The translations under genes and the position numbers were made by a program. Below are positions 22,444-46,301 of a stretch of DNA of 64,000 nucleotides, piece after piece. The DNA is from Candidatus Aenigmatarchaeota archaeon. Lineage in GTDB: Archaea; Aenigmatarchaeota; Aenigmatarchaeia; PWEA01. The notes under the pieces are model-generated. The model had not been told where the DNA came from, ran no database searches, and worked only from the letters and a program-made list of their open reading frames with translations. The stretch is from contig PWEA01000005.1 of NCBI GenBank assembly GCA_003553905.1, forward strand, positions 7,915 to 71,914, in the 5' to 3' direction. How positions within the stretch are numbered: position 1 is the first letter of the stretch; each line of letters opens with the position of its first letter.

Positions 22444-22518
22444 AGCGGGGTAGAGCAGCCTGGAGTGCTCGTCGGGCTCATAACCCGGAGGTCGGTGGTT
22501 CAAATCCACCCCCCGCTA
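22444..22518 (+). tRNA. tRNA-Met(CAU), initiator type
   Basis: Cloverleaf read by eye: acceptor AGCGGGG/CCCCGCU with an A1:U72 pair, D-arm GAGC..GCUC, anticodon loop CUCAUAA with three G:C pairs at the bottom of the anticodon stem, T-arm GGUGGUUCAAAUCCACC, discriminator A. No CCA is encoded. Confidence 0.8.
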
Positions 22519-28068: not shown

Positions 28069-28398
28069 ATGTCAGAAGAAAAAAAGTTGTACGATAAAGA
28101 TAATGTCAAAAAAGGTGTCACAGAAGGACTGATGGACTTTGGAGATTATCTGACAAAGGGTTCAAAAAGCTTTCTGAAAGAAGTTTACGAAGGTGTCAAG
28201 TATAATCCAAAGGGAGAAGACTGGTATCCTGATACCTACGATGAAATCGATATAGGAGAAGACGAAGAAGAACTCTATATAGATCTAGAAAGTATGGTAG
28301 ATTATTGGAAGGACGTAGAAACAGAGTACAAGGATCTGAAGGATCACAAAGATACCCTTGTCGAAGACTTGGAGTACCTAGACTCCAACGAAGAGTAA
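28069..28398 (+). CDS. Hypothetical acidic protein
   Basis: 109 aa, very D/E-rich. Confidence 0.4.
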   Translation: MSEEKKLYDKDNVKKGVTEGLMDFGDYLTKGSKSFLKEVYEGVKYNPKGEDWYPDTYDEIDIGEDEEELYIDLESMVDYWKDVETEYKDLKDHKDTLVEDLEYLDSNEE

Positions 28399-28416
28399 AA
28401 TTTCTCAGGTGATTAT

Positions 28417-29433
28417 ATGAACGAAACAGAAATATATGAAAAACTTATGCGTGGCGTGGAAACCCGGGTAAAGGTAAAAGAGAAGATTAAAAATATTTCT
28501 CCAGAGTCCTTGATAAACAAAATAAACGGTTTTGAAAATGAGCTTGATGAAGGATACAACGAGTTTATAGGACCATGTCTACAGGAATACTGCAGCGTTC
28601 AGGAAAGACTGGAAAAGGTTCAGGAAGAAATAAACCAAGGAAGCGGGGACTGTGAGGAGTACAGGGATATTGAAAACAAAATCGAAGGTTCTTTTGGAGG
28701 ACTACCCTGGGAACCCGAGGACATAAAACAGATTGCAGACGAGGATGCAAAAGCCTACAACGATGCCATAAAAGAAAATGTTGACTCCGAAATACTTGAA
28801 AGAATAACTAATCAGGTAGATGTCTGGGAAAGTATGAAGGATTTAGTTAAAGAAAATCCAGGCGAACTGGAAAAAAGATTAGACCAAGCCCTTGAAGAAG
28901 AAAGGGGTCTGCTCGTTGAAATAGAAGAATCCATTGATCCTATATACAAGAAACAGGTGGAAATCGTTCGAAACTTAGAGGAAGCCGGTTATATAGAAAA
29001 CATCCTTGAAGATGCTGATAAGACGTACAATACAAGAGCCTACACAAAGGAAAGCAAGGCAATAAAATACCATGAGGGTCTATTGGACTTGAACGTTCTA
29101 GAGCAGAAAATGTACAATAACGGGAACAGAAGGGGGAGTGTACTGGATGACGATGATTATAAAATAGCAGACAGGATAAACGATATGACTATAGACGACA
29201 TCAACGACTGGAAGGTAAAAATAAATAGAGCTATGGAATCAGAAGAAAAATCGTACCTAGAACCAACAGAAGCACTCCAGGAAACAGTGAACGCATACGT
29301 AAATGAAATACTGGGGGGTAAAGACAGGAAGGGTGCAAAAGAAAAACTGAGAGTCGCTTACACAGACATAAGAGAGTGTACTAGCAAAGGACACGGAAAC
29401 GGTATACCCTGGCAGATCGTACAGGATATATAA
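28417..29433 (+). CDS. Hypothetical acidic helical protein
   Basis: 338 aa, charged and helical, no motif. Confidence 0.45.
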   Translation: MNETEIYEKLMRGVETRVKVKEKIKNISPESLINKINGFENELDEGYNEFIGPCLQEYCSVQERLEKVQEEINQGSGDCEEYRDIENKIEGSFGGLPWEPEDIKQIADEDAKAYNDAIKENVDSEILERITNQVDVWESMKDLVKENPGELEKRLDQALEEERGLLVEIEESIDPIYKKQVEIVRNLEEAGYIENILEDADKTYNTRAYTKESKAIKYHEGLLDLNVLEQKMYNNGNRRGSVLDDDDYKIADRINDMTIDDINDWKVKINRAMESEEKSYLEPTEALQETVNAYVNEILGGKDRKGAKEKLRVAYTDIRECTSKGHGNGIPWQIVQDI

Positions 29434-29478: not shown

Positions 29479-30033
29479 ATGGACCTTTATCAGTTGATAT
29501 TCAGAGTAATTTTGGGGGTGGCCGAATGTTCCAGAGGTTCTGACTGGGGCTGTCTAACCGGAGATCCAACACATGATTTCATATATGCATTCCTACTTCC
29601 ACATATTGTTCTGTTCATTTTTCTATTCATATTTGCTCAACCAATCCATAAACTACACAATGGCCTGGGGGTTTTATTCGGGGTAGGTGCATACATATTC
29701 ATAATATACGAAGGATGGTACGGAGCTATCCTCGCTCCTCTGTTAATCTGGTGGTTTGTATTAAGTATCATTATGGGACTTGGATACTTTTTCATCACGA
29801 AGTTCATGGGTGCCGGTGAACAAAGAGGTAACGTAGGTAAATGGGCAGGTGAAAAGATCAAGAAAGGAATGAAAAAGGAGAAGGTTATACAGCAGCTTGA
29901 AATGGACATCAACGATTACAAACAAAAGTTAAAAAACACAAACAACGACGAACAGATTAAGATTTACACCCAAAAATTAGAAGAACTAAGAGAAACAAAG
30001 AAAAAAATAATGAGAGGAAATCTAGACCCCTGA
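29479..30033 (+). CDS. Membrane protein, distant member of the tandem paralog family (LPWLL..SQLGDG family)
   Basis: Three to four TM helices. FIFAQPIHKL resembles LLFAQPLMAF of the fourth paralog (31159..31653). C-terminal coiled-coil tail. Confidence 0.5.
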   Translation: MDLYQLIFRVILGVAECSRGSDWGCLTGDPTHDFIYAFLLPHIVLFIFLFIFAQPIHKLHNGLGVLFGVGAYIFIIYEGWYGAILAPLLIWWFVLSIIMGLGYFFITKFMGAGEQRGNVGKWAGEKIKKGMKKEKVIQQLEMDINDYKQKLKNTNNDEQIKIYTQKLEELRETKKKIMRGNLDP

Positions 30034-30048
30034 GGGTGAAAAAATACC

Positions 30049-30528
30049 ATGAGTTCTCCCTTTGTTCAGCTACTTCAAGACCCGACTGTACAGCCGTTCC
30101 TGCCATTTTTCTTTACGTTGGCGGTTGTTTACGGCCTATTGTCTATCATGGGAGAAGGTGATGAAGGACTTTTCGGGAAAAACTCTGTCAACCTTATAAT
30201 TTCTCTCGTATTTGCTTTTTTTGCGGCGGGCTACAGCCCCTTTGTAAATTTCTTCATAAACTATTTCGGCATAATACTATGGTCTTTCATAGGTCTCTTT
30301 TTCCTAGCCTTTTTCAAGAAAGCAATATCAGCAGGAGATGCAAATAGACAGGACAAAATAATAATAGTTGGTGCAGTTCTACTTGTAGGTGTTAGTCTGG
30401 CGGGGCTTGGTACAGGTTACATAAAAGATATGGATATACCGATAATAGGATCAGAGAACTTTATAGTGCTTATAGGACTTTTCCTTGTGATGTTCGTATT
30501 TTACAACGCATATAAGTTAAAGGAGTGA
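30049..30528 (+). CDS. Membrane protein, tandem paralog family member
   Basis: PFLPFFFTLAVVYGLLSIMGEGDEGLFGKNSVNLIISLVFAFF aligns with the LPWLLTFAIVYGVLSQLGDG..SDA.R.VI..VLAF core of the downstream paralogs. Confidence 0.55.
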   Translation: MSSPFVQLLQDPTVQPFLPFFFTLAVVYGLLSIMGEGDEGLFGKNSVNLIISLVFAFFAAGYSPFVNFFINYFGIILWSFIGLFFLAFFKKAISAGDANRQDKIIIVGAVLLVGVSLAGLGTGYIKDMDIPIIGSENFIVLIGLFLVMFVFYNAYKLKE

Positions 30529-30609
30529 AAACTTAGTCTGAATATTTTCAAAAGTGGCAGTACTGGTTGAAGCTTTAAATAAGTAACCTCGAAAGAATAA
30601 AATGGTAAG

Positions 30610-31107
30610 ATGTCAGGAAGCATTATAGGACAAATGATACAGAACCTCGAGGGTCTAGGCTTCTTTGCATATCTACTACCTTGGTTACTTACTCTGGCAA
30701 TAGTATTCGGAGTGCTAGAACATTATGATATGCCCGAGTCAACTTCAGCCAGAGGTGTAATAGCAATAGTTGCTGCATTTGTTGTACTTCCTGTAGGCAA
30801 TATAATAGCTCCATTTTTAAAGAATATAGTCACGGGACTTGTAGCTATAGGAGTCGGTATTCTGGTTGCAGTAATCTTTATAGAACTCCTGGGGTACAAG
30901 GTCAGTGAAAAGGAAAATATCTTCCTTGCAAATCCTATGAGCTTCGGTGTAATAATGATAATACTTGCTGTTATGGTATTCATCGGTGCCGGTGGAATGG
31001 ACCTTGTAGGGTTTAGCATAGATATTACGAGCGAGCTTGTAACGCTACTTGCCTTCCTAGCTGTGATATCGCTGGGTGTTTGGTTTATGGCAGCAAAGGA
31101 AAGTTAA
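30610..31107 (+). CDS. Membrane protein, tandem paralog family member
   Basis: LPWLLTLAIVFGVLEHYDMPESTSARGVIAIVAAFVV shares the core motif. Confidence 0.55.
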   Translation: MSGSIIGQMIQNLEGLGFFAYLLPWLLTLAIVFGVLEHYDMPESTSARGVIAIVAAFVVLPVGNIIAPFLKNIVTGLVAIGVGILVAVIFIELLGYKVSEKENIFLANPMSFGVIMIILAVMVFIGAGGMDLVGFSIDITSELVTLLAFLAVISLGVWFMAAKES

Positions 31108-31158
31108 TGTAAGCGAAAGGCTTAAAAAGTTTAAGGAGGAAAAGTAAGGTGTGAAAAG

Positions 31159-31653
31159 ATGAACGGAGTTGCTTTGGATCTTTTTGGAATGGGAGCTGCA
31201 GATTCTTTCTTTATATATGCTATGCCCTGGCTTCTTGTTTTTGCCCTTGTATACGGGATACTTTCACAGTTAGGTGATGGAGGACTACCCAAAAGCGATG
31301 CGTCCAGGGTTGTGATATCAGTAGTACTCGCTTTTTTCTCCCTTCTGTTTGCCCAGCCACTAATGGCTTTTCTTCAGGCAATGGGAGGAAGCACAATCGT
31401 GGTACTCACAGGCTTCTTGTTTTTCCTTATATTACTCGAAATAACAAGTGAAGATGGCGCCATGAAGTTTGTAAGCCAACGTCCAAAGGCCTTTGGTATA
31501 GGTATACTGGCCGTTATAGTTGTTTTATTCCTTGGGTCGGGTGGCATGGAAATGATTGGATGGGGAAACATAGATCCCCAACTGAACCCTGTAACTGTGT
31601 TTTTCCTTGTCATAGTTGCCGTTTCGATATGGTGGATGGTAAATGAAAACTAA
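31159..31653 (+). CDS. Membrane protein, tandem paralog family member
   Basis: MPWLLVFALVYGILSQLGDGGLPKSDASRVVISVVLAFF. Confidence 0.55.
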   Translation: MNGVALDLFGMGAADSFFIYAMPWLLVFALVYGILSQLGDGGLPKSDASRVVISVVLAFFSLLFAQPLMAFLQAMGGSTIVVLTGFLFFLILLEITSEDGAMKFVSQRPKAFGIGILAVIVVLFLGSGGMEMIGWGNIDPQLNPVTVFFLVIVAVSIWWMVNEN

Positions 31654-31665
31654 AAGGTGATATAA

Positions 31666-32268
31666 ATGTTTAATATAGCAAATGGTATGACTGCCTTGAT
31701 GGCGCAGACAGGACCAATCGACGAAGTATCACAGATAATCGGGATAGACTTCTTCTCAATGGTGCTTCCATGGCTTCTGACCTTCGCTATAGTATACGGA
31801 GTACTTTCACAGTTAGGTGATGGAGATGGACTACCCGAAAGTGATGCAGCCAGGGCGGTAATCGGAATAGTACTGGCATTTGTAATAGCACCTGTTCTTT
31901 CGCCTTATGTCATACAGCTCGCTGCGCTTTCAACCGGATTCGTAGCCTTGATCGCCGGAGTAATTCTGCTTTCAATATTCGTTCAGATAGCAGGCTTCGA
32001 AGGTGGTGGAGGTGGAAAGAAGTTCTTCGGGAAGTATCCGACATTAACAGGATTCACTGTCTTCGTACTCGCGGTATTGATTTTCATAGGATCAGGTGCA
32101 CATGAAGCCCTTGGTATAACAATCCCAGGATACATATCACAAAACTATCCGCTGTTGTTTTTCCTTGCATTCATGGTTATGATTGTACACTGGATGGTCA
32201 AGGGAGACGAAGACAACAAAAAAAGCGGCGGTAAACCAAAGCAACAAAGACCGAAACAACAGAATTAA
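31666..32268 (+). CDS. Membrane protein, tandem paralog family member
   Basis: LPWLLTFAIVYGVLSQLGDGDGLPESDAARAVIGIVLAFV, plus a Gly run and a basic tail. Confidence 0.55.
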   Translation: MFNIANGMTALMAQTGPIDEVSQIIGIDFFSMVLPWLLTFAIVYGVLSQLGDGDGLPESDAARAVIGIVLAFVIAPVLSPYVIQLAALSTGFVALIAGVILLSIFVQIAGFEGGGGGKKFFGKYPTLTGFTVFVLAVLIFIGSGAHEALGITIPGYISQNYPLLFFLAFMVMIVHWMVKGDEDNKKSGGKPKQQRPKQQN

Positions 32269-32279
32269 AATCTTTTCTC

Positions 32280-33074
32280 TTAGTCTGTTGGAATAGCTGA
32301 CATCCCGTCCTTTTCGTCTTGATTTTCCTCCAAAGAATCACCACCTACCATAGCCAAAGCCTTGTTTCTGTTGTCTCTCGATAGTTTTGGTAAAAACTCC
32401 TTAAATGCTCTTTCCAAAGAACTAACTCTGGATTCGATGCTCTCGACCCGAGAAAGTGCTTCATCTGCATCTTCTTCTATGTCTCTTATCTTTTTACGCT
32501 GGCTTTTTTCAAGATCTTCGACCTTGTCTTTGACGCTTTCAAGTTCTGTGTTTATATCACCGATATCATCGATAAGACCACTTAACTCGAGTTCTACGTT
32601 ATCCCACTTTTCATCGATTATCTCTTCCACAAGTATTTCGAGTTCTATCTGATCTTCATCTGACATCCCTGTCTTGTTACTGGACGGCTGTGAAAAATCG
32701 CTGTCTTCCTGATTTTCTTCCTGATTTGTAAAAGATGATGACGGCTGGGGTGCAATGAAGTTTTTATCGGAGATACCATCACCTGAACTACTGTAATCGG
32801 CTGGAATTTCTTCGTCGAAGTCCGGTGAACCACGAGCAACCCTTTCTTCTCCGGAGAAGCTTGAAACCTTGTTTTTGAGTACTTTGTTCATACTCCTCTC
32901 TATCTCATCGTTTGGATAGCCCTTGGCCTTGAGTTCATCGATTATCTCCATCTCAGAATATCCTCTCGAAGCAAGTCTCCTGACCTCTCCTGTAGGAGAC
33001 CCACCCCCAGAAGAATCTAAACTATCACTCCTCTCACTACCTCCGTCGGTGTTATTACCCAAACCAAGAACCAT
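32280..33074 (-). CDS. Acidic coiled-coil protein with small N-terminal helical (UBA-like?) module
   Basis: RRLASRGYSEMEIIDELKAKGYPNDEIERSMNKV, then a low-complexity acidic linker and a C-terminal heptad coiled coil. Divergent from the pilus ATPase operon. Confidence 0.5.
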   Translation of the reverse strand: MVLGLGNNTDGGSERSDSLDSSGGGSPTGEVRRLASRGYSEMEIIDELKAKGYPNDEIERSMNKVLKNKVSSFSGEERVARGSPDFDEEIPADYSSSGDGISDKNFIAPQPSSSFTNQEENQEDSDFSQPSSNKTGMSDEDQIELEILVEEIIDEKWDNVELELSGLIDDIGDINTELESVKDKVEDLEKSQRKKIRDIEEDADEALSRVESIESRVSSLERAFKEFLPKLSRDNRNKALAMVGGDSLEENQDEKDGMSAIPTD

Positions 33075-33079
33075 GTTAC

Positions 33080-33481
33080 CTACTTTCTCCTTTGAAACTC
33101 CTCTTTAATAAGTCTTTTTACTTCTTCTTCGGTAAGAAACTCCGTCTCGAGGGGAGAAAAAAGATCTACGAAGCTTTTCACCTCTTCGAACTCGCCTCTG
33201 CGGGGAACGTCCTCCAGTCTTTCCTTGATCTTGGGTATTTTGTTTTCTACCTTCATTATCCTCATTAGAAGTTCGTCCAGTCCGTCCTTTACCTTTTCTA
33301 TGTCCTCGACTTCCTTCTTTTCTAGATCCATCAACCGATCTTCTATAGACTTAAGGTTCGATTCCATGGAGTTACTTCTTTTCTCCACATCTCTGATACG
33401 TCTGGAATTTCCTTTAACACGGTCCAAAAGCTCCCGTACAATATCCCTGAGACCCGAATCATCCGCCTCACCGAAAGCCAT
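33080..33481 (-). CDS. Coiled-coil protein
   Basis: 133 aa, almost entirely heptad-like K/E/R-rich helix. Confidence 0.5.
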   Translation of the reverse strand: MAFGEADDSGLRDIVRELLDRVKGNSRRIRDVEKRSNSMESNLKSIEDRLMDLEKKEVEDIEKVKDGLDELLMRIMKVENKIPKIKERLEDVPRRGEFEEVKSFVDLFSPLETEFLTEEEVKRLIKEEFQRRK

Positions 33482-33578: not shown

Positions 33579-35861
33579 GTGGTTCAAATGCCATGTGATT
33601 ACGAATACAACCAAAAGGAAAATAAAATAGAAGTAAACTGCTCTGGATGCATCTACGGAAGTAGTGTAGCTGACTACGAGGAGTGTATGGCGAACACAAT
33701 CGATAAAATTCTTGAAGTAAAAGGAGTAGAATCGATTGTATTCAAAAACAGCCGTGAACACGAGTATCCGTATGAGCAGACAAAGCTCCTTGTAGAGATA
33801 GCCCAGGTTCTTAAGGATCTGACCAAAGACAAGGGTCTAAGGAAACTAAAGAAGCTAGATGTACCGGGCTGCAACAAATATTTCCGGGAAAAATATTCGG
33901 AGCTACAGAATATAATCCTCGAAGAACTGAGCAAGGACCCAATAGGTACGTACATACATCTCAAAAGAAAGATAAGGCATCTCAAGATCCAATTAAAGGA
34001 AAATAAGGGTGGTTCACAGAACGAGTGCAGAGAAAAGTACATGAACAAAATACTTATACCAATAAAGGACGAGATCGAGAACACGGGAATGATACAGGGG
34101 GTTAAAAACCAACTTTCCGGATATCGACCAGGCAGGAGAGACGCCTACAGAGAGCTTTTTTACCCTTCTGTACGACCAAACTTCATGCGGACAAAATACA
34201 TGAGACAAGCCCCCGAAGAAGGTAAGAAGGTAGAACATTATGATGTAGGAACTTCTGATGTAGATATATACAGACTGCCTGAAGAAACCAGGCCTCTATA
34301 CCACTTTTCCCCTCCCGAGTTCAAACTCGAGGAGGAAGAATATAAGATACTAGACGAGGCTCAGAGATATATCAGCGAGCATAGACCCGAAACTACCGAG
34401 TTTGCAGAGTCGAAGAGAACCAGGGAAGTTTTCACATCAATATGCAGGGACCTGGTGAAAGACATAGCGGATAATAAGAAAACTGTACTGGAAACCGATC
34501 AGGTCGAAAGACTCACAACCATACTAGGTAGATATACAGGTGGTTTGGGGATACTTGAAGCACTCCTGGAGGACAAAAGAATCCAAGACATATACATAAA
34601 CTCACCAATAGGAAACAAACCGATCTTCGTCAACCACGAAAAATATGGAGAATGCAAAACAAATATAATACCCACCCAAGACGATGCAGAAAGCTGGGCA
34701 ACAAAACTAAGACTTTCGAGTGGAAGACCATTGGACGAAGCCAATCCGGTTCTTGATGCATCCATAGAGGTACCCGGAGGAAGTGCAAGGATAACGGTCA
34801 TAGCTCCCACGCTTTCACCTGAAGGTATTGGTTTTGCTATAAGAAGACACAGAGAAGATCCATGGACATATCCACTGTACTTGAGACCGGATATAAACTA
34901 TATAAATCCACTTTTTGCAGGTCTCATGAGCTTCATAATCGATGGTGGACGTACGTTCCTCGTTGGGGGTGGAAGGGGTTCTGGAAAAACATCACTTCTC
35001 GGAGCCTCGATGCTTGAAATGAAGAGAGACTGGAGGATACTTACAGCAGAGGATACATTAGAGCTACCAGTCGAAAGGCTCAAAAGGCTTGACTACGATG
35101 CACAGAGATTAAAGTCAAGGTCTGTTATAACCCAGGTAGAAACCGAACTTCCTGCGTCGGAAGCAATACGAACGGCCCTTCGTCTGGGTGATTCAGCACT
35201 AGTTATAGGTGAAGTAAGGAGCACGGAAGCAAAGGCCCTCTACGAAGCCATGCGTATAGGAGCGATGGCTAAAACGGTCGCCGGTACTATACATGGTGAA
35301 TCAGCATACGGTCTTTTCGACCGTGTTGTAAACGACCTCGGAGTCCCAAAGACATCTTTCAAAGCTACAGACATCGTAGTTATATGCAACAGGATAAAGA
35401 GCGCATCCGGTCTCGAGGAAATAAGAAGAGTAACAAGTGTTACTGAAGTAAGAAAACACTGGTCCGATGATCCCAGGGCAGAGGATGGATTTGTTCCTCT
35501 TATGAAATATTCGGCAGAAGATGACGAGTTAAAACCGACCGACACTCTACTAAACGGTGAGTCAGAGGTTCTGAATAAGATATCTTCACAGGTCAAGGAC
35601 TGGGCAGGAAGGTGGGATAGGGTCTGGGAAAATATAGAGCTCAGGGCTAAGGTTAAAAAAGCCATAACCGACTATGCACTCGAAACAGGTGAAGAAGATC
35701 TAATGGAAGCCCCGTTTGTTGTCAAGAGCAACAGCAAGTTCCGCCTTATCATGGACGAGGTAAAAAAGAAGACAGGTTACATAGACCCGGATGAAACCTT
35801 CGATAAGTGGGAACAATGGCTCAAGGATCAGATAAAGACTGGTGAATTTAGGAATGTTTAA
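33579..35861 (+). CDS. Type II/IV secretion-system ATPase (FlaI/TadA/PilB/VirB11 family) with extended N-terminal region
   Basis: Walker A GGGRGSGKTSLLGA, Asp box ILTAEDTLEL, GEVRSTEA and a TIHGE His box. 760 aa from the GTG at 33579; the alternative ATG at 33588 would be leaderless. Confidence 0.8.
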   Translation: MVQMPCDYEYNQKENKIEVNCSGCIYGSSVADYEECMANTIDKILEVKGVESIVFKNSREHEYPYEQTKLLVEIAQVLKDLTKDKGLRKLKKLDVPGCNKYFREKYSELQNIILEELSKDPIGTYIHLKRKIRHLKIQLKENKGGSQNECREKYMNKILIPIKDEIENTGMIQGVKNQLSGYRPGRRDAYRELFYPSVRPNFMRTKYMRQAPEEGKKVEHYDVGTSDVDIYRLPEETRPLYHFSPPEFKLEEEEYKILDEAQRYISEHRPETTEFAESKRTREVFTSICRDLVKDIADNKKTVLETDQVERLTTILGRYTGGLGILEALLEDKRIQDIYINSPIGNKPIFVNHEKYGECKTNIIPTQDDAESWATKLRLSSGRPLDEANPVLDASIEVPGGSARITVIAPTLSPEGIGFAIRRHREDPWTYPLYLRPDINYINPLFAGLMSFIIDGGRTFLVGGGRGSGKTSLLGASMLEMKRDWRILTAEDTLELPVERLKRLDYDAQRLKSRSVITQVETELPASEAIRTALRLGDSALVIGEVRSTEAKALYEAMRIGAMAKTVAGTIHGESAYGLFDRVVNDLGVPKTSFKATDIVVICNRIKSASGLEEIRRVTSVTEVRKHWSDDPRAEDGFVPLMKYSAEDDELKPTDTLLNGESEVLNKISSQVKDWAGRWDRVWENIELRAKVKKAITDYALETGEEDLMEAPFVVKSNSKFRLIMDEVKKKTGYIDPDETFDKWEQWLKDQIKTGEFRNV

Positions 35862-37938
35862 GGGCGATAAGGATGACCGCAAAGAAGAGATAAAAAGACT
35901 TCTGGAAAGAAGAAACGAAGGACTCCGGATGCCCGAAAGCAGAAAAAGAACATTCACATCGAGGGAGTACGAAACATTCTTAAAAGAGGAACAGAAGCAG
36001 AGGAAACTATCACTTTACGAAAAACTATGTAATATTGCCGAAAATATAATAGTCGTAGAGCCGTCCGATGAAAAGAGGGAGGAGATGGAACGGTCAATAG
36101 ATATGACCTACATGAATATAACCCCTGAGGGGGCCTACTCTCTAGCCATTCTGTCCGGTATCGGCATCTTTGTCACTGCGATATTACTTATGGTACTGGG
36201 TCTTGCCTCGATAATATTTGGTCTCCTCATGTTTATACTGGGTGGTGTATCAATATACCTCCTCGCAGAATATCCAAATTCGGAGGCCAGGCTTTTCCGG
36301 GTCAAAGCTGCCGATCAGATTATGCTTGCTGTGATATACATGGTCATATACATGCGTACTTCTCCTAACCTCGAAGGTGCAGTTAAATTCACCGCCAAGC
36401 ATCTAGGAGAGCCCCTTTCACTTGATTTCAAAAAACTGCTCTGGGATGTAGAAACCCGAAACTATGTTTCGATGAGGGAAGCCCTTTCCGCCTACCTGGA
36501 AAAGTGGGAAGACAACAAAACCTTCGTGGAAGCTATACAGATAATAGAAGACTCGATGCAACAAGCCGGAGAAAAAAGAAAAAGAATGCTCAACGAAGCA
36601 ATAAACACGATGATGACAGGCTCAAGAGAGATGATGAAAAACTACTCAAACAAACTCGAACTTCCTATACTCGTAATACACGCCCTCGGTATAATGCTTC
36701 CTATCATGGTTCTGATAATGTTCCCTATAATAATGCTTATGCTTGAAGAAACTATCCGGCCTGCGTTTCTCATTCTGGGCTACAATGTTATACTACCGCT
36801 CATAATATATCTAACAGGAAAAAGAACGCTGGAGTACAGGCCGATGGGATTTTCTGAGCCTGACATATCAAAACATCCGGACCACATTCCCTCTGGAATG
36901 ATAAACATCGCAGGTAAGGAGATAAAGATATGGCCTATATCTGTTCTTCTGTCGGTTCCTGTGATAATTACCGGTATCTATCTGGTTAACTTCTACGCAG
37001 GTACAGATATATCAACTCAGCTCTACACGTCAATAATCATAACCATCGGAATAGCACTGGGTCCTTCGAGCTACTTCTACCTCGACTCCAGCGCTAAGCT
37101 CAAGATAAGGAAGGAGGTGAAGGATATCGAGGATGAATTTTCGGAGTCTCTTTTCTCACTGGGTAATATACTCAAGCTGGGTAAGCCAATGGAGAGGGCC
37201 ATGGAAGAAGCTGCTGTAAAAAATAAGGATATGGACATATCGAAGATGTTCGATATAGTCGTAAACAATATCAAAAAGGGTGGGATGAACATCAGGAAGG
37301 CTTTTTTCGATGATGAATACGGTGCAGTGTGGCATTATCCTTCGACACTCATAATATCCGTCATGAAAATCGTCATAGATGCGACAAAAAAGGGTTCCGA
37401 TATTGTCTCTAGGTCAACTATATCAATATCAAAGTATCTACAACAGCTCGATGAGATAGAAGAAGACCTGAAAAATATGCTCTCTTCGGAGACTACTTCT
37501 ATGCAGTTCCTGGGAACGTTTCTTGGACCCTTTGTGGCAGGTGTTTCTGTGGCCATGGCTGCTATAATGATATCAATATTCCAAGGTGTGGGTGGTTCAT
37601 TGGATGCACTGGCAGGAACCGGAACCTCACCCGGTGTTGGAGGTCTAGGTGGGATGGGACTCAATGAAGGCCTAGTAGGTGGATGGGGTTCAGCAGAAAA
37701 TATGATACCCATATCATGGATACAGGTTGTCGTAGGTCTCTATGCTATCCAGACATCCTACCTTCTTTCTATGCTAACATCCGGCATAGAAAACGGTCCC
37801 GGTGACCAAATAAAGAAAAGACAGTCCGCAGCAATTATGATAATGATAGGTGTAATAGTCTACGGTGTTTCAATTGCTGTGGTTTGGCAAATATTCGGAG
37901 GGCAGATATCTGAACTTCTAGCAGCAACCATAAACTGA
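35842..37938 (+). CDS. FlaJ/TadC-like polytopic membrane platform protein
   Basis: 698 aa. Cytoplasmic helical domains alternate with clusters of TM helices, the two-T2SS_F-domain layout. Overlaps the ATPase by 20 nt, suggesting translational coupling. Confidence 0.7.
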   Translation: MNLGMFKGDKDDRKEEIKRLLERRNEGLRMPESRKRTFTSREYETFLKEEQKQRKLSLYEKLCNIAENIIVVEPSDEKREEMERSIDMTYMNITPEGAYSLAILSGIGIFVTAILLMVLGLASIIFGLLMFILGGVSIYLLAEYPNSEARLFRVKAADQIMLAVIYMVIYMRTSPNLEGAVKFTAKHLGEPLSLDFKKLLWDVETRNYVSMREALSAYLEKWEDNKTFVEAIQIIEDSMQQAGEKRKRMLNEAINTMMTGSREMMKNYSNKLELPILVIHALGIMLPIMVLIMFPIIMLMLEETIRPAFLILGYNVILPLIIYLTGKRTLEYRPMGFSEPDISKHPDHIPSGMINIAGKEIKIWPISVLLSVPVIITGIYLVNFYAGTDISTQLYTSIIITIGIALGPSSYFYLDSSAKLKIRKEVKDIEDEFSESLFSLGNILKLGKPMERAMEEAAVKNKDMDISKMFDIVVNNIKKGGMNIRKAFFDDEYGAVWHYPSTLIISVMKIVIDATKKGSDIVSRSTISISKYLQQLDEIEEDLKNMLSSETTSMQFLGTFLGPFVAGVSVAMAAIMISIFQGVGGSLDALAGTGTSPGVGGLGGMGLNEGLVGGWGSAENMIPISWIQVVVGLYAIQTSYLLSMLTSGIENGPGDQIKKRQSAAIMIMIGVIVYGVSIAVVWQIFGGQISELLAATIN

Positions 37939-37987: not shown

Positions 37988-39286
37988 ATGAAGCCGCTCA
38001 ACGACCAGATAGGAGCTTCAACTCTTATCATGATAATAGCCGGGGTAATAATAATACTCATAGCGGGCAGCTTTGCAACAGTACTGATGAGTCGTATTGC
38101 CCAAGACGTACTTGGACAAAGTGTCATGTGTGATACTTTTTGTTCGATGCAGTCTACTGTTAAAGAAGTGACAACACTGGATATGATACCAAGCCCCGGA
38201 CTTACCGGTACACTTGGTTATATTGCCATAGGGGCTGTAATAGGTTCGGTGGTACCGGGAATAGGAACCGCGATAGGAGCAGCGATAGGAGCAATTGTTG
38301 GAGTTGCTATAGCCGCAGTACAACATTTTGCAAGCTGGCTGGGAAGAGATGATGAAGATGTTGCAAGAGATCTGGCAATAGACTACTTGGTTCGCCCCGA
38401 AGGCATGGGTTGTTACTGTGGCGTGTCCAATGCCAGAGGAAAGTATATACACTTTCTGACACCCGGTCCTAGCTCAACCAGGCCACATGTGGCCGAGTTC
38501 CATCTAACAGACCAAACTCCGGAAAAACATCTCCAAGAAGAGATAATAGATACAGATGGAAACACTATATTCAAACACGGTGGTTATGGCCAAAAAAGTA
38601 ACTGTGAAGATGAACTTAGTAAAATAGATGAACTTGACAACGGTGAATACTTAGTCGAACTCGATATATATCCAGGGTGCATAATACTATCAACGACCGA
38701 TGACAACTGTGCAATATGGGCATTCAATGAAACCTTTGCAATAACCAATGAAGAAGGAAAGTCCATAAGGGAACAGGCTGAAGAACAGGATAAAATAATA
38801 TTCGCTAGCACGATAAGGTCCGATGACCCCGTAAACAGCCTGGGTATCGCAGAAGAGATAGAGGCAAGTGGCAGACACGAGTCCCAGAGGATGCTCCTCG
38901 AGCATTACGAAGAAGGTATACACCCATTCCAAGTTCACGTCCCTGTAGTTTGTAAATCTGAAGAAAGAACTGAAAGGCGTGTCCAGGATCCACTTGACAG
39001 GGCATGTAGAGAACAGTGCCATGACGGAAACGCACTTCTATGGGCTTCTAGGTGTTTCGAAGAACCAGAAGATGCCGGGGAAACCTACTATTCACTGGAA
39101 GAAGATTTTCTTCCAGAAGAATATGATGACACCAGAGACTTATGCCCTATGGAAGACGAAGACAACGGAGATGAAGACGGGGGGGAAGATGAAAACAACA
39201 ACGAAGATCGCGGTTATCCCTTCTGTCTCTGTAACACTCCTCGAAGTTATTCATGGGAACTGGACGAAGAATACGCAGAAATATAA
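37988..39286 (+). CDS. Pilin-like protein with Cys-rich acidic extracellular domain (family 1, paralog A)
   Basis: N-terminal hydrophobic helix. Motifs shared with family-1 paralogs: C.TFCSMQ, GMGCYCGV, YIHF, HLTDQTP, DGNTIF, SQRMLL, VVCKS, CREQC, LCP, PFCLC, SWELDEEY. An extra Gly-zipper hydrophobic segment (GAVIGSVVPGIGTAIGAAIGAIVGVAIAAV) is unique to this copy. Confidence 0.65.
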   Translation: MKPLNDQIGASTLIMIIAGVIIILIAGSFATVLMSRIAQDVLGQSVMCDTFCSMQSTVKEVTTLDMIPSPGLTGTLGYIAIGAVIGSVVPGIGTAIGAAIGAIVGVAIAAVQHFASWLGRDDEDVARDLAIDYLVRPEGMGCYCGVSNARGKYIHFLTPGPSSTRPHVAEFHLTDQTPEKHLQEEIIDTDGNTIFKHGGYGQKSNCEDELSKIDELDNGEYLVELDIYPGCIILSTTDDNCAIWAFNETFAITNEEGKSIREQAEEQDKIIFASTIRSDDPVNSLGIAEEIEASGRHESQRMLLEHYEEGIHPFQVHVPVVCKSEERTERRVQDPLDRACREQCHDGNALLWASRCFEEPEDAGETYYSLEEDFLPEEYDDTRDLCPMEDEDNGDEDGGEDENNNEDRGYPFCLCNTPRSYSWELDEEYAEI

Positions 39287-39307
39287 TATCTTGAATTTGT
39301 GATGTAA

Positions 39308-40408
39308 ATGATTGACGAAAAAGGTGGTTCCTTATTACTCATAATAGTTGTAGGTATAATATTATCCCTGATCGTTGGTTCTTTGATGACCGGTGCATTT
39401 AGTGTGGTGGTGAGAACCGTAATCGGAACCGACCTGTCGTGTCCTACATTCTGTGCAGTTCAAGCAGACATAGAGGAGTATAGCATGGCAGATATAATGC
39501 TACCATCGATTCTACCATTCATAGAGGAAAGCTCTGAGGCAACGGCTCATAAAATAGCAGACTGGATAATACAACCGGAAGGGCTTGGCTGTTACTGCGG
39601 CGTCAAAGCAAGAAGTGGAAGATACATCCACTTCCATACAGGTTCACCTGGAGAAAGGTACATAAGAGAGCTTCACTTGACGGACCAAGATCCACATATA
39701 CATCTAGACTATCATGTCAGTGATTCCGATGGAAACACGTTGTTCGACCACAGCTTCGACAAGAGCAGCTGTGAGGAAGACATAAGTAACATAGAAGAAG
39801 TACAGTACTATCAAACCGTTGGCTGTGTAATCGTGGTTAACTCCGAGGGAGGGTACTGCTCTATACATGTAATAGGAGAAGGTTCAGTTATAGAAAACAA
39901 CATAGGTGAAAGCATACACGATCAGGTTGAAATAAAGGAAACATTGACGACAAACTATGAAGACAACGATCCCATTTCATTTTTTAAAATCGGCGACAGA
40001 TACAGCGTACCTCGATTTGCATACGGGACAGGAGATGTCCTGACCTACACGATAGGAACCCAGCCCTACCAGCACGATTCCCAACGAATGCTCCTCCGGG
40101 ACTACGACGAATACCTAGGAGCTAAGTTCGCTCTCTATGCTCCTGTTGTCTGTAGGGCATCAACAAGAGAAGGACAAGATACTCAGACAGAACTCGATGA
40201 AAAATGTAGAAAGCAATGTAAGGAAGACGATAAGATTTTCTTCTCTTCTGCATGCCAAGATATCCCCAGGGAAGGTTATGACATGCTACGTGACGAATAC
40301 CGCGAAGACACTCTCTGTGAAAAGGATGACGAGGGCCCATACTGCAGATGTGTGCACGAGAAACGATACTACTGGGAGGTAGACGAAGATTATTCGAGAG
40401 AAGAATGA
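39308..40408 (+). CDS. Class III signal-peptide (type IV pilin-like) protein with Cys-rich domain (family 1, paralog B)
   Basis: MIDEKG then GSLLLIIVVGIILSLIVGSL. Shared motifs SCPTFCAVQADIEEYS, GLGCYCGV, YIHF, HLTDQDP, DGNTLF, SQRMLL, VVCRAS, CRKQC, LCEK, PYCRC, YYWEVDEDY. Confidence 0.7.
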   Translation: MIDEKGGSLLLIIVVGIILSLIVGSLMTGAFSVVVRTVIGTDLSCPTFCAVQADIEEYSMADIMLPSILPFIEESSEATAHKIADWIIQPEGLGCYCGVKARSGRYIHFHTGSPGERYIRELHLTDQDPHIHLDYHVSDSDGNTLFDHSFDKSSCEEDISNIEEVQYYQTVGCVIVVNSEGGYCSIHVIGEGSVIENNIGESIHDQVEIKETLTTNYEDNDPISFFKIGDRYSVPRFAYGTGDVLTYTIGTQPYQHDSQRMLLRDYDEYLGAKFALYAPVVCRASTREGQDTQTELDEKCRKQCKEDDKIFFSSACQDIPREGYDMLRDEYREDTLCEKDDEGPYCRCVHEKRYYWEVDEDYSREE

Positions 40409-40447
40409 AAAAGTTAAAAACTAAACGAAAACCTATTAAATGATAAT

Positions 40448-40561
40448 ATGGAAGTAAGTATGTCTGTCTTGCTCTGGGTGATTGTAGCCTTTGCTCTGTT
40501 TGTATTTGTAGTAATATTTACCGGTATGTTTTTCGCCGACACGTTTGGAATTTTAATATAA
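40448..40561 (+). CDS. Possible 37-aa hydrophobic micro-protein
   Basis: MEVSMSVLLWVIVAFALFVFVVIFTGMFFADTFGILI is a single TM helix lying between two pilin genes, below the ORF-track cut-off. Confidence 0.2.
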   Translation: MEVSMSVLLWVIVAFALFVFVVIFTGMFFADTFGILI

Positions 40562-40572
40562 TCAAGGATACT

Positions 40573-41850
40573 ATGATCGATCAAAAGGGAGCATCAGTAA
40601 AGGCACTCTTCGTAATCATAATTGTAATGGTGGGTGCATGGGTTTTAATACAAAGTATTGGTCCTATAACCAAAGCTGCCATGGGAACCGAAGTATCCTG
40701 TCCGCTTTTCTGTGATATACAGTCAGGTATAGAAGACTACTCGAGATGGGCATGGTGGCCGGGGTGGCTTGGAGGAAGTGTAAGCTGGTCCGATATATTC
40801 AAAAATGAACTAAGAAGAAACATGGTAGCACCTAAATCAATGGGATGTTACTGTGGTGTACAGGAAGAAAGAGGAAAGTTTATCCATTTCCAGGGGAGTA
40901 CCAGTAGTATACGCGAATTCCACATGACGAATCAGGATCCATTGGTACATCTTAGCCTTGAGGCCGGTCCATTTGACCACAGGCCTACTTCATCGCAAAT
41001 TCGTAATATGTGTCGATCCATCATAGAAGATTACGGAGAAGAGTTCAGTCCACCTGTATACGATCAAAGCGATCTCAATAGAGTTCAAGCATGCATGATT
41101 GTTTCAGAATCACCGGGTTGTGCAATATGGAGATTTGAAGAGGGTTTTGTCATTAGGAGAGACTCTGATGATTCTATATGGGAACAGGCACAGGAACAGG
41201 GAAAAGACATAGGCTTTTTTTCCTTTAATAGAGACGAAGACCCTGTTTCGGATCTAAGCATAGGTGAAACTGTGTATGTATCGGGATCAAAGGACCCCTC
41301 CCAACGGATGTTACTCCAAAAATACGAAAGCGGCGATCAAGATTTCAATCTCTCTGCATCCGTGGTATGTAAAAGTGTTAGAATGGATGAATCTATGCCC
41401 ACAAACGAACTAGACAGGGCTTGCAACGAATACTGCTCGGATGAAAATCTTTTCTTCATGAATTCTAACTGCCTAGAGGAGAGGAGAGGTGGTTATGATA
41501 TCCTTCCAGAAGAATACATAGAAAATGGGAGGGATAAACTCTGCCCTGAAGGAAGAGAACTTCCCTTCTGTCTCTGTGCAGGAGAAAAGGACTACTACTG
41601 GGAAACATACTGGGAAGATTTCTACACAGTAACGGTAGAAACCCAAGGTAGTGGAAATGTGGACATAAGCCCCGACCTGGACGAGTATCACGAAGATCAG
41701 GAAGTATCATTGGAAGCAGAAGCGTACAACGATTGGGAATTTAGCCATTGGGAAGGAGATCATCCACATGGACAAAAAGAAGATGCAGAGATAACGATCA
41801 CGGTAGATGGAGATATGGAAGTAACTGCAGTATTCGAATCGACATCATAG
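40573..41850 (+). CDS. Class III signal-peptide protein with Cys-rich domain (family 1, paralog C) and C-terminal InlB B-repeat-like domain
   Basis: MIDQKG then ASVKALFVIIIVMVGAWVLI. Shared motifs SCPLFCDIQSGIEDYS, MGCYCGV, FIHF, HMTNQDP, SQRMLL, VVCKS, CNEYC, LCPEG, PFCLC, YYWE. C-terminus YTVTVETQGSGNVDISPDLDEYHEDQEVSLEAEAYNDWEFSHWEGD..ITITVDGDMEVTAVFE fits the divergent InlB B-repeat pattern. Confidence 0.7.
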   Translation: MIDQKGASVKALFVIIIVMVGAWVLIQSIGPITKAAMGTEVSCPLFCDIQSGIEDYSRWAWWPGWLGGSVSWSDIFKNELRRNMVAPKSMGCYCGVQEERGKFIHFQGSTSSIREFHMTNQDPLVHLSLEAGPFDHRPTSSQIRNMCRSIIEDYGEEFSPPVYDQSDLNRVQACMIVSESPGCAIWRFEEGFVIRRDSDDSIWEQAQEQGKDIGFFSFNRDEDPVSDLSIGETVYVSGSKDPSQRMLLQKYESGDQDFNLSASVVCKSVRMDESMPTNELDRACNEYCSDENLFFMNSNCLEERRGGYDILPEEYIENGRDKLCPEGRELPFCLCAGEKDYYWETYWEDFYTVTVETQGSGNVDISPDLDEYHEDQEVSLEAEAYNDWEFSHWEGDHPHGQKEDAEITITVDGDMEVTAVFESTS

Positions 41851-41910
41851 GACAGGTCGTGGATTAAAACTTATAATACGCGGTAAACATACATAATAGG
41901 GAGATGTTCC

Positions 41911-42093
41911 ATGAATACGGATTCAAAAAGCCTCTTTTCCAGAGGTGAAATAAGTATACAGGCCCTGGTAGTGATAATTCTAATGTTGATAGGGATCATA
42001 ATCATTGTTATAATATCATCGGGCGTCGGTGACTTTGGAGGAGATGCGTCTTCGACTATAATGGAATATTTAGCAGATGCTATAGGTGCATAA
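41911..42093 (+). CDS. Short pilin-like protein (60 aa)
   Basis: SLFSRG then EISIQALVVIILMLIGIIIIVI. Almost entirely the signal/helix segment, so a candidate structural pilin. Confidence 0.5.
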   Translation: MNTDSKSLFSRGEISIQALVVIILMLIGIIIIVIISSGVGDFGGDASSTIMEYLADAIGA

Positions 42094-42097
42094 AGTT

Positions 42098-42250
42098 ATG
42101 GTACATAATAAAAAGGGGTTCATAAGTTTCGCTATGATTGTGATCATAGTTCTTATAGCTCTAACGGTCGGTATTCTGCTTATACACACCTTTTGGGGAG
42201 GCGGTGAAGGATTGTTAAACCTACTCATCCAAAGGCTTCAACAGGTATAG
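42098..42250 (+). CDS. Short class III signal-peptide pilin (50 aa, not in ORF track)
   Basis: MVHNKKG then FISFAMIVIIVLIALTVGILLIHTFWGGGEGLLNLLIQRLQQV. Textbook archaeal prepilin N-terminus. ATG at 42098, TAG at 42248..42250. Confidence 0.5.
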   Translation: MVHNKKGFISFAMIVIIVLIALTVGILLIHTFWGGGEGLLNLLIQRLQQV

Positions 42251-42259
42251 GTATAAAAT

Positions 42260-42406
42260 ATGTCTACATTTAGCGACACATTAACTGTTTTCGAAAACAA
42301 TACAAAGATAATATTTGCCTTAGTGGTGTTTGCTCTGCTTATAGGCATACTTTACTACACGATAGGTCCTATAATAGATACATTACTGGGGGCTATAGGT
42401 TATTGA
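42260..42406 (+). CDS. Small membrane protein (48 aa, not in ORF track)
   Basis: MSTFSDTLTVFENNTKIIFALVVFALLIGILYYTIGPIIDTLLGAIGY. Single TM helix, no KG cleavage motif. Confidence 0.35.
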   Translation: MSTFSDTLTVFENNTKIIFALVVFALLIGILYYTIGPIIDTLLGAIGY

Positions 42407-42407
42407 T

Positions 42408-43124
42408 ATGAACGTAATCAACAAAAAAGGTTCAAGATCACAGAGTGAGTTCATATTTCTTGCAATAAAGGCAGTGATAGGTATCTTGGTTATAGGAATT
42501 GTTGCCTTGAGTGTTAGGGGCATGGAAACAGGCTGCAGTACACATGACGAAAATCCAACGGCATGTATAAGAAATACCGAATGCAGGCCTGCAGTTAGAA
42601 GAAAGAGAAACATATTCACGTTCTATATTGATCCTGCTCGTACCATAGACCTAATCTACCATACAAAAATAACCGGTGATATAGAATGCCGAGACGCGAT
42701 AAGGACTCCTAACAACAGATACCACGCCGCAGAGGATGCTCAGTGTGTATGTCCTGTTGGATGGGAAGTAATTTTAGACAAGGATGATCAGTACTACGGA
42801 GTCTGCAGACTACCAGGAACTAACGACTATCACCCATGCGAGTATCCACCAGACGGCGAACAGCAAGAAGCAGAATTCAAAGACATGTGTGAAGATGGAG
42901 ACAGATACCACGGAGAAGTCTGGATCGACGGAACAGATGAGGAAGCTCCAAATATGTGCTGCGATGATGGAGATACAAAGGAATGTGACTCCGATAACAT
43001 AGACGAAGAATGTGGCGATTTGGTTTGTATTGAAATAGAGGTCGAGGACGAAGACGGAGAAGAGGAAGAAACCACTTTCTGGATAGAAGAAGAAAGCGTA
43101 CCTGATATAGAATACTTCCTTTAA
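42408..43124 (+). CDS. Class III signal-peptide protein with Cys-rich acidic domain (family 2, paralog A)
   Basis: MNVINKKG then SRSQSEFIFLAIKAVIGILVIGIVAL. Shared with the next gene: ETGCSTHDENPTACIRNTECRPAV, GDIECRDAIRTPNNRYHAAEDAQCVCPVGWE, YYGVC, YHGEVWIDG..MCCDDGDTKECD. Confidence 0.7.
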   Translation: MNVINKKGSRSQSEFIFLAIKAVIGILVIGIVALSVRGMETGCSTHDENPTACIRNTECRPAVRRKRNIFTFYIDPARTIDLIYHTKITGDIECRDAIRTPNNRYHAAEDAQCVCPVGWEVILDKDDQYYGVCRLPGTNDYHPCEYPPDGEQQEAEFKDMCEDGDRYHGEVWIDGTDEEAPNMCCDDGDTKECDSDNIDEECGDLVCIEIEVEDEDGEEEETTFWIEEESVPDIEYFL

Positions 43125-43151
43125 AATACACAAAATAAAAGATGAAGCGGA

Positions 43152-43802: not shown

Positions 43803-43847
43803 ACCACATTTACACCTTTCAAAAAGATTTAAACGAACACGACAAAG

Positions 43848-44270
43848 TTGTATATGATGAACACCCCAGCAAAGGGCATAGGCGTAGGAAAGTCTCTTAT
43901 GTTAATATTGATACTGGTAGTACTCATATTTACAACGGTCGTAATAGGTGACATCTTTACATCTGTTCTTGGTATGGGTATAGGAGATGAGTTCCACCTC
44001 ACAATGGGTGAGTTGTCTGTATCCTACACTACATCTAGCTCTTTTCAGGAAAAAACAGAAATAGAAGAAAATCTTCCGATGGCCTGCGAAAGAGTTGTAT
44101 TTAGAAACAACACACTAAAGGCTTATCTAGAACATGATGAATTCTACTTCGTTTCCTACACTACACAGGAAATGGATGAAGATTTCGAGGTAGAATGTGA
44201 TTCCTTTGGTGGGGTGAAGTTTATTGACGGGAGGATTGAAGCCTCTAGCCCGGTTGATGGAACATTGTGA
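43848..44270 (+). CDS. Class III signal-peptide (pilin-like) protein
   Basis: MNTPAKG then IGVGKSLMLILILVVLIFTTVVIG. 140 aa. Confidence 0.6.
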   Translation: MYMMNTPAKGIGVGKSLMLILILVVLIFTTVVIGDIFTSVLGMGIGDEFHLTMGELSVSYTTSSSFQEKTEIEENLPMACERVVFRNNTLKAYLEHDEFYFVSYTTQEMDEDFEVECDSFGGVKFIDGRIEASSPVDGTL

Positions 44271-45169: not shown

Positions 45170-45170
45170 A

Positions 45171-45701: not shown

Positions 45702-45708
45702 TGATAAA

Positions 45709-46272: not shown

Positions 46273-46301
46273 ATTTTATAAGAAAGGGGGAGATATTTAA
46301 C

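Follow-up and report, generated by a model that had tools for sequence, protein, structure and literature searches.

Five small membrane-protein genes, here called p1 to p5, stand in tandem at 29479-32268 in a 64,000-nucleotide stretch of DNA from a Candidatus Aenigmatarchaeota archaeon (contig PWEA01000005.1, hereafter the window), next to a genuine type-IV-pilus-like locus. Four of them represent a large, distinct, unannotated and paralog-expanded family, which we name the 5-TM family after its five transmembrane (TM) helices, and this family is linked to two coiled-coil proteins (CCPs) and to the ATPase of the pilus-like locus. In our best reading the family would serve the type-IV-filament-like apparatus of DPANN archaea as an accessory or scaffold module, integral to the membrane and specific to the lineage, and would act together with the coiled-coil proteins. 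The original prediction for this region, made from the letters of the window, had offered two options, an accessory part of the appendage system in the membrane and a separate family expanded by paralogy; it had missed the CCPs as the tightest partners of the array, the 5-TM topology and the nature of p1 as a separate type with three TM helices and a coiled coil.

Genes of the array and conservation of their neighbourhood

The five open reading frames (ORFs) exist as predicted, on the same strand and in a tight cluster, the gaps p1/p2, p2/p3, p3/p4 and p4/p5 being 15, 81, 51 and 12 bp. The 3' end of p5 lies 11 bp from the convergent gene of the larger coiled-coil protein. The array and the genes that follow it are listed below.

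p1, 29479-30033 (+): 184 aa, first gene of the array, about three TM helices and a K/E-rich tail
p2, 30049-30528 (+): 159 aa, 5-TM member from a subfamily both old and distinct, which usually provides the first 5-TM gene
p3, 30610-31107 (+): 165 aa, 5-TM member closest to the family consensus
p4, 31159-31653 (+): 164 aa, 5-TM member, basis of the structure model
p5, 31666-32268 (+): 200 aa, 5-TM member, C-terminal tail basic, GGGGG within the cytoplasmic loop 3-4
CCP-large, 32280-33074 (-): 264 aa, Pfam RecX_HTH1 (E 5e-6) and coiled-coil-type matches
CCP-small, 33080-33481 (-): 133 aa, all coiled coil
T2SSE ATPase (FlaI/TadA-like), 33579-35861 (+): 760 aa, Pfam T2SSE (E 1e-15)
Platform-like polytopic membrane protein, 35842-37938 (+): 698 aa, in the TadC/FlaJ position
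Pilin-like run, 37988-47288 (+): ten proteins of 140-432 aa, N-termini with (K/R)G and a hydrophobic helix

The array had been placed immediately upstream of the pilus locus. The locus is there, but the two minus-strand coiled-coil genes (32280-33481) separate the array from the ATPase gene.

Conservation of this neighbourhood, the check suggested by the original prediction, was examined in two samples. The family-seeded sample comprised 11 loci. The ATPase-seeded sample was taken from the best 80 of 359 GTDB species genomes with the clade-specific N-terminal domain of the ATPase as the seed, and the counts given here use its 49 species-level loci having at least 5 kb of upstream sequence. CCP-small, CCP-large and one to six family genes are present together in 40 of these 49 loci, none of the three is present in seven, and the CCPs occur with no family gene nearby in the remaining two. 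Family genes without the CCPs were never seen among the 49 (Fisher p 4e-7, the loci being phylogenetically non-independent); of the 42 ATPase loci with CCPs, 40 have family genes beside them. The distance from the end of the nearest family gene to the start of the ATPase gene is 1.2-2.4 kb in 37 of the 40 loci and 2.7, 3.5 and 4.4 kb in the other three.

Among the family-seeded loci, nine of the 11 contexts have the same layout: the window itself, three loci of distant Aenigmatarchaeota (L003, L005, L006), Nanohaloarchaeota L008, L009 from a genome labelled 'Thorarchaeota', Woesearchaeota L090, Nanoarchaeota L091 and the metagenome contig L092. Their common order is the array, two minus-strand genes (approximately 230-280 and 125-160 aa), a T2SSE ATPase (745-767 aa) and a membrane protein (680-746 aa); in L090 a further gene on the minus strand, of 316 aa, separates the CCP pair from the ATPase gene. 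An array upstream of the CCP pair, the ATPase and the platform is therefore found in genomes labelled Aenigmat-, Nanohalo-, Woese- and Nanoarchaeota. The outer flanks are unrelated between lineages (Dph5/DUF357, GatB, AspRS, CysRS and, among the upstream neighbours, ribosomal protein L15e). L064 and L067 have an inverted array, which lies downstream of the CCP genes and runs in their direction. Because these inverted arrays still adjoin the CCP genes, the linkage of the array to the CCPs and the ATPase survives rearrangement.

The proteins of the locus are conserved to different degrees. Between the window and distant Aenigmatarchaeota the identity is 51-52% for the ATPase, 36-38% for the platform protein, 37-41% for p3-type proteins, 28-36% for p2, 25-31% for p1 and 24-33% for the CCPs, and the pilin-like proteins of the window had no match in the distant Aenigmatarchaeota loci. 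The conservation of the family therefore resembles that of a machine component and not that of a pilin or an effector.

The order of the paralogs is also partly fixed. In 33 of 39 other loci p2 finds its best match in the leading 5-TM gene of the array, and p3 mostly in the second array gene, while p4 and p5 are less positional. The number of family copies per array varies from one to six, and recent duplications are seen in L048. The array thus has an old ordered core of p1-type, p2-type and p3-type genes, to which lineage-specific duplication has been added. Because the old, sub-functionalised paralogs keep a fixed order, they would argue for a hetero-oligomer, that is, for non-redundant subunits of one complex.

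A variant type of locus was observed in three members of the ATPase-seeded sample (L070, L073 and L076), where the platform gene is divergent from the ATPase gene and is followed by pilin-like genes, with neither coiled-coil proteins nor the 5-TM family nearby. Because of this variant, the extended ATPase is seen to operate also without the module of CCPs and array.

The 5-TM family

The original prediction counted four consecutive paralogs and a more distant fifth. Four are demonstrable by BLASTP and by the family hidden Markov model (HMM); p1 has no significant direct similarity to the others (E 17-19) and is connected to them via intermediates only. Proteins p3, p4 and p5 are full-length paralogs with 30-38% identity (BLASTP E 1e-15 to 1e-22; p3 against p4 and p5, 1e-15 to 1e-20). 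The BLASTP match of p2 to p4 and p5 is confined to approximately 45 N-terminal residues (E 1e-3 to 1e-4), but p2 aligns end to end with p3-p5, with the same helix layout, and matches the family HMM with an E value of 5e-40, the weaker end of a range for p2-p5 that reaches 6e-57 in p3. Although more distant, p2 is thus genuinely one of the family. A protein identical to p5 (P0001) is found in public assemblies, and copies identical to p5, p3 and p2 lie on one public contig of 82.8 kb.

No match above threshold was obtained for p1-p5 in Pfam or NCBIfam. A profile search of PDB sequences with the family returned noise only, the best hit being cytochrome oxidase subunit 2 (E 0.055), and the structure model had no neighbour among PDB folds. 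The family is nevertheless large. A word-indexed search with the four paralogs retrieved 87 clusters, of which the named ones are all 'hypothetical protein' of Candidatus Aenigmatarchaeota, and an exhaustive HMM search of 1.84 billion representatives retrieved 1722 clusters (50% identity) at E<=1e-3 and 405 at E<=1e-10. More distant members are named after Nanohaloarchaeota, Woesearchaeota, Nanoarchaeota and one 'Thorarchaeota' metagenome-assembled genome (MAG), and the contig with the last label (L009) holds the same DPANN-type locus. As far as sampled, the family and the coiled-coil module are limited to DPANN archaea. The option of a distinct paralog-expanded family thus holds in part, beside that of an accessory component.

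The most conserved parts are an N-terminal amphipathic helix (..LIxNLxxxGFF..), the TM1 motif LP(W/F)LL.FA(I/V)VYG.L and the start of TM2. In p3 the helix motif is IGQMIQNLEGLGFF, a clear fit to the consensus; it is approximated in p2 and degenerate in p4 and p5, where just the hydrophobic FF end is kept. The TM1 motif is present in p3-p5. The longer motif that the original prediction ascribed to all five proteins fits p4 and p5, lacks its LGDG stretch in p3, is approximate in p2 and is barely recognizable in p1. The near-invariant residues in an alignment of 88 sequences are A, G, L, I, V and F, and no charged or catalytic residue within the membrane is conserved in this alignment. For that reason a structural role fits better than an enzyme or an ion path.

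Three to four TM helices had been predicted for each protein. According to hydropathy, and to an AlphaFold2 model of p4, there are five in p2-p5, covering nearly the whole protein, and about three in p1. The helices of the p4 model span residues 14-37, 47-62, 65-96, 109-126 and 144-162 (predicted local distance difference test, pLDDT, 73.9; predicted template modelling score, pTM, 0.47; alignment of 88 sequences). The mean number of K and R per protein is 0.23 in the N-terminus, 1.45 in loop 1-2, 0.03 in turn 2-3, 3.67 in loop 3-4, 0.33 in loop 4-5 and 1.22 in the C-tail. Because of this distribution, the positive-inside rule predicts an N-out/C-in topology for the family. A Sec-type signal peptide precedes the conserved N-terminal helix in P0071, P0060 and ORFs of L064, L087 and L034, and wherever a coiled-coil or basic tail is present (p1, p5, P0217 and the bridging ORFs described below) the TM helix before it is odd-numbered; both features agree with the predicted topology. 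As for the tails claimed earlier, the helical K/E-rich one of p1 and the basic one of p5 are real, but the Gly-rich one is not a tail, the stretch in question lying in the cytoplasmic loop 3-4 of p5.

Weak Pfam matches to DUF2070 (PF09843) were found in 17 of the 88 members, with a best E value of 3.8e-4 and scores of 10-20 bits against a gathering threshold of 30 bits. In the two members for which the coordinates were seen, the matched region is approximately 38-195 of 561, in the N-terminal polytopic part. Six of the 88 have weak matches to T4SS_pilin, which are not significant (E >= 0.028). Matches between hydrophobic helices are often spurious, and both sets, being below threshold, are leads only. 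DUF2070 proteins are about three times longer than the family members, and the function of DUF2070 is likewise unassigned, so that membership would be mechanistically uninformative.

Status of p1

The first gene of the array encodes about three TM helices (hydropathy) followed by a K/E-rich, helical, coiled-coil-like tail, and its arrangement is only loosely similar to the N-terminal helix and TM1 motif of the family. The BLASTP E values of p1 against p2-p5 are not significant. Orthologs of p1 lie directly upstream of p2 orthologs in L003, L005, L006 and L007 (BLASTP E 1e-5 to 5e-18), and the p1 HMM has matches at E<=1e-5 in 18 loci. The gene is thus a conserved member of the cluster with an orthologous group of its own.

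The case for homology to the 5-TM family rests on intermediate sequences, namely four bridging ORFs with three TM helices and a coiled-coil tail, which are the first genes of some inverted arrays (E values against the family HMM in the whole ORF set):

L080, 4613-5095: E 5.5e-10
L087, 5156-5644: E 4.2e-11
L064, 3620-4129: E 2.8e-14
L067, 6007-6534: E 5.2e-12

As a set of four sequences these match the family HMM over TM1-TM3 with E values of 1e-13 to 1e-17, and for one there is in addition a match of 150 residues to the p1 HMM (E 1e-7, whole ORF set). When the p1 alignment was compared with the family by hhalign, the probability was 25%, and 52% in the wrong register in a second comparison; 87% in the correct register was reached only after the four bridging ORFs had joined the p1 alignment. 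On this ground p1 is probably related to the 5-TM family, as a divergent and truncated form. From its architecture of three TM helices and a tail, the tail is predicted to be cytoplasmic.

Two longer paralogs of 266-318 aa stand ahead of the array in L034 (3865-5692, +), and also in L024, L033, L035, L036 and L042. Each has a Sec signal peptide, the TM1 motif and N-terminal helix of the family, extra TM helices and a long cytoplasmic coiled-coil tail. By their architecture these proteins, which come from one groundwater lineage of Aenigmatarchaeota, are enlarged p1-like forms.

Adjacent coiled-coil, ATPase, platform and pilin-like genes

CCP-large is present in 42 of the 49 ATPase loci. At its N-terminus is a small RecX_HTH1-like domain of three helices, which an acidic linker joins to a C-terminal coiled coil. 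By description it is probably of the same type as the 'CCP' genes of Hamm et al. (2024). The CCP-small gene is divergent from the ATPase gene across a 97-bp spacer. Neither protein has a signal peptide or a TM helix, and this cytoplasmic character sits awkwardly with the published idea of viral-attachment-like CCPs outside the cell.

The best NCBIfam match of the ATPase is FlaI (2e-40, below the cut-off), and the protein is 51-53% identical across DPANN phyla. Its N-terminal extension of approximately 280 aa (33579-34478) is clade-specific, with relatives in the 359 GTDB species genomes mentioned above. It contains the invariant motifs RPNFM.T and YH..PPEF.L and a Cys-containing N-terminus, and is 38-42% identical between Aenigmat- and Nanohaloarchaeota. 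The extension sets a clade of its own apart among archaeal type IV filament ATPases, and it could be a docking site for the coiled-coil proteins. The platform-like gene overlaps the ATPase gene by 20 nt. Its product has no Pfam match, one ortholog having a faint match to T2SSF, and the platform assignment is based on its position and on the literature.

The pilin-like run contains two paralog groups. The first is made up of three tandem large proteins at 37988-41850 (+; starts at 37988, 39308 and 40573) of 432, 366 and 425 aa, related with E values of approximately 1e-50, which have class III-type N-termini and many conserved cysteines (e.g., MGCYCGV...YIHF...HLTDQ); the third carries a terminal Flg_new_2 / InlB B-repeat domain. 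The second is a Cys-rich pair at 42408-43802 (+; starts at 42408 and 43152) of 238 and 216 aa, with 44% identity (E 5e-53). At 46302-47288 (+) a class III-type N-terminus is fused to GLUG-motif / M26-peptidase-N-like repeats, which suggests an adhesin-type minor pilin. Small ORFs are interspersed in the run. Three of them, at 41911-42406 (+), encode 60, 54 and 48 aa with hydrophobic N-terminal segments and may be short major-pilin-like subunits; genes of 40-75 aa also follow the platform gene in L003, L005, L006 and L009.

Comparison with known systems

DPANN archaea depend on physical contact with their hosts, and the machinery of this contact is largely undescribed. Conserved loci that combine type-IV-pilus-like genes with those of coiled-coil proteins are the present candidates (Hamm et al., 2024; PMC11291902). 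In its section on these loci, that study reports two of them, conserved in cluster-2 DPANN and Undinarchaeota, with a range covering Nanohalo-, Woese-, Pace-, Nano- and Aenigmarchaeota, proposes a role in host interaction and mentions that several proteins of the loci were detected by proteomics. The locus of the window shares with those described there the core of CpaF/TadA-type ATPase, TadC-like platform and coiled-coil proteins, as well as the taxonomic range. The 5-TM family is not described in the section on CCPs and pili, in the figure legend or at the terms searched in the main and supplementary text of that study, and a literature search found no description of it. The family is a new, unannotated, DPANN-wide component of a locus type already reported; the present analysis describes its size, topology and paralog structure and the way in which its occurrence is nested with that of the CCPs. 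It offers a concrete membrane component for structural models, AlphaFold-Multimer predictions, the interpretation of subtomograms and proteomics of the apparatus. A family profile could annotate 'hypothetical protein' entries in hundreds of genomes, and the family is a marker that separates the CCP-associated variant from other archaeal type IV filament systems.

FlaX of the crenarchaeal archaellum and PilM/N/O of the bacterial type IVa pilus are membrane-anchored coiled-coil scaffolds around the motor. They are accessories encoded beside the ATPase and platform genes of type IV filaments, and a p1-type anchor with a coiled coil, together with two soluble coiled-coil proteins, would follow the same general logic. 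There are clear differences, however. FlaX, PilN and PilO are bitopic, whereas p1-p5 are polytopic with three or five TM helices and almost without a soluble domain, and nothing in FlaX or PilM/N/O corresponds to the array of paralogs or to the N-terminal helix that the family conserves on the extracellular side. No sequence or profile similarity of p1-p5 to FlaX, PilN or PilO was detected in Pfam or NCBIfam, including the PilO/PilN-like similarity that had been considered earlier, and even p1 has about three TM helices and not one. Membership of the PilN/PilO/FlaX type is thus not indicated, and the likeness, although the closest that we can offer, would be one of function.

The T2SSF proteins (PF00482: TadB, TadC, PilC, FlaJ) are also polytopic inner-membrane parts of a machine and are sometimes encoded by two paralogous genes (TadB and TadC). 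The family proteins (160-200 aa) are far smaller than T2SSF platforms and do not have the cytoplasmic helical bundles of T2SSF domains. A fragment of TadB, TadC or T2SSF, another earlier suggestion, was rejected: there was no PF00482 match at E<=1, and hhalign against the platform protein of the locus gave a probability of 2%. A prepilin peptidase (Peptidase_A24: PibD/FlaK), which has a pair of invariant aspartates for catalysis, the second within a GxGD-type motif, was likewise rejected, with no A24 match and no invariant or nearly invariant Asp in the 88 sequences. Type IV pilins, finally, have a single N-terminal TM helix and a globular extracellular domain that is mostly beta, which does not describe p2-p5 with their five helices. 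Their class III signal is a short charged leader with (K/R)-(G/A) at its end, directly ahead of a hydrophobic helix of some 20 residues, and the N-termini of all five proteins are without a (K/R)G leader. The earlier conclusion that p1-p5 are not pilins is thereby upheld.

Possible role of the array

From the linkage to the coiled-coil proteins and the ATPase we infer a physical association, a scaffold role and coiled-coil contacts of the family. Whether the array functions within the apparatus of CCPs, ATPase and platform is in our estimate about an even chance. The module would then consist of the membrane array (p1-p5) and the two cytoplasmic coiled-coil proteins, working with the adjacent motor and pilins. 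In this model a hetero-oligomer of the 5-TM paralogs would act as a membrane scaffold that surrounds the platform protein or lies next to it, with the conserved N-terminal amphipathic helix on the outer membrane face, where it may contact pilin helices, the filament base or the envelope. The p1-type coiled-coil tail would project into the cytoplasm and engage the two CCPs, and these in turn may contact the clade-specific N-domain of the ATPase. Such a scaffold would resemble anchoring and alignment sub-complexes (FlaX, PilM/N/O) in function, without homology. Given that the array belongs to the apparatus at all, this specific arrangement is put forward tentatively, as possible rather than probable. 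A bolder version, in which the 5-TM paralogs and the CCPs are the membrane core of a DPANN-specific machine built on a type-IV-filament motor and form or gate a host-contact conduit, appears improbable; the conduit would be a pore or cytoplasmic bridge for the exchange of material with hosts, and the extracellular helices would engage the filament base or the host envelope.

Several points weigh against a place of the array in the apparatus. All functional support for the family, and thus for the accessory role proposed earlier, is genomic association, in the form of a gene neighbourhood strongly conserved across phyla. The array does not belong to the ATPase operon but forms its own transcription unit, which converges on CCP-large. 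Two loci with ATPase and CCPs, L044 and L068, have no family gene nearby, and conversely the family genes of L001 and L007 have no CCP or ATPase gene within 10 kb. In L001, a complete 875-kb genome (CP066684.1), two paralogs lie between an ERCC4 nuclease gene and purine-synthesis genes (Formyl_trans_N and AIRS-domain), and in L007 p1-type, p2-type and p3-type genes lie near ftsZ. Homologs in genomes lacking a pilus locus had been named at the outset as an observation that would speak against an appendage role, and these two loci touch it in part; a profile match to a transporter family had been named as another, and none was found. In addition, the low monomer pTM of 0.47 and the want of a structural neighbour mean that the structure backs no particular role, and the 80 ATPase-seeded loci, being the best matches to the ATPase of the window, are biased to Aenigmat- and Nanohaloarchaeota.

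Some of the same observations can be read as pointing to a membrane module formed by the array and the CCPs on their own, for membrane shaping, cell-cell contact or fusion, or division scaffolding, which would be co-regulated with the pilus motor or make use of it. The family co-occurs perfectly with the CCPs, the ATPase and platform are found with neither in seven of the 49 loci, the inverted arrays keep the transcription direction of the CCP genes, and the family genes near ftsZ in L007 have no ATPase beside them. In its section on CCPs, the study of Hamm et al. (PMC11291902) also discusses these proteins as candidates for host interaction and not as parts of pilus assembly. The CCP genes, however, wherever present, always adjoin the ATPase gene divergently across a short spacer; no CCP pair was seen away from the ATPase, in a sample that was itself ATPase-seeded, and no known membrane-remodelling domain was detected in Pfam or NCBIfam. 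We regard such a separate module as unlikely. If, on the other hand, the array were an unrelated channel, transporter component or membrane-homeostasis system, kept adjacent by inherited synteny, its separate transcription unit and the stand-alone occurrences in L001 and L007 would be readily accommodated. The upstream genes TYW2, Dph5 and DUF357 are also syntenic within Aenigmatarchaeota, so conservation is partly plain synteny, and the sub-threshold DUF2070 matches would fit as well. Yet the adjacency is kept across phyla where the other flanks are wholly different, and through inversions, the presence and absence of the family are nested with those of the CCPs, and neither a transporter-family match nor a conserved polar residue within the membrane was found, all of which makes inherited synteny an unlikely explanation.

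The paralogs might also themselves be exported or assembled as structural subunits, forming a filament or tube of an unconventional kind, or be effectors that insert into the membrane of the host. A tandem array of variable copy number (one to six, with the recent duplications in L048) located upstream of motor genes is reminiscent of flaB arrays, and the T4SS_pilin matches point in the same direction. Those matches are not significant, though; five TM helices that obey the positive-inside rule, in proteins without a class III signal, argue for resident polytopic proteins, and the family is far more conserved than the pilins of its locus. This explanation is in our opinion very improbable.

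Other features of the window

Two extremely acidic soluble proteins of 109 and 338 aa are encoded at 28069-29433 (+), ending 45 bp upstream of p1. No homologs of either were found in the other loci examined, so both are lineage-specific, and the larger protein (28417-29433), which is not conserved across loci, was rejected as a member of the conserved module. The acidic proteins of the window suggest a salt-in halophile. A single tRNA gene at 22444-22518 (+) is the sole Rfam match at the gathering threshold in the window. The nearest species-level locus is L010, from an Aenigmatarchaeota MAG, in which the N-domain of the ATPase is 83% identical to that of the window.

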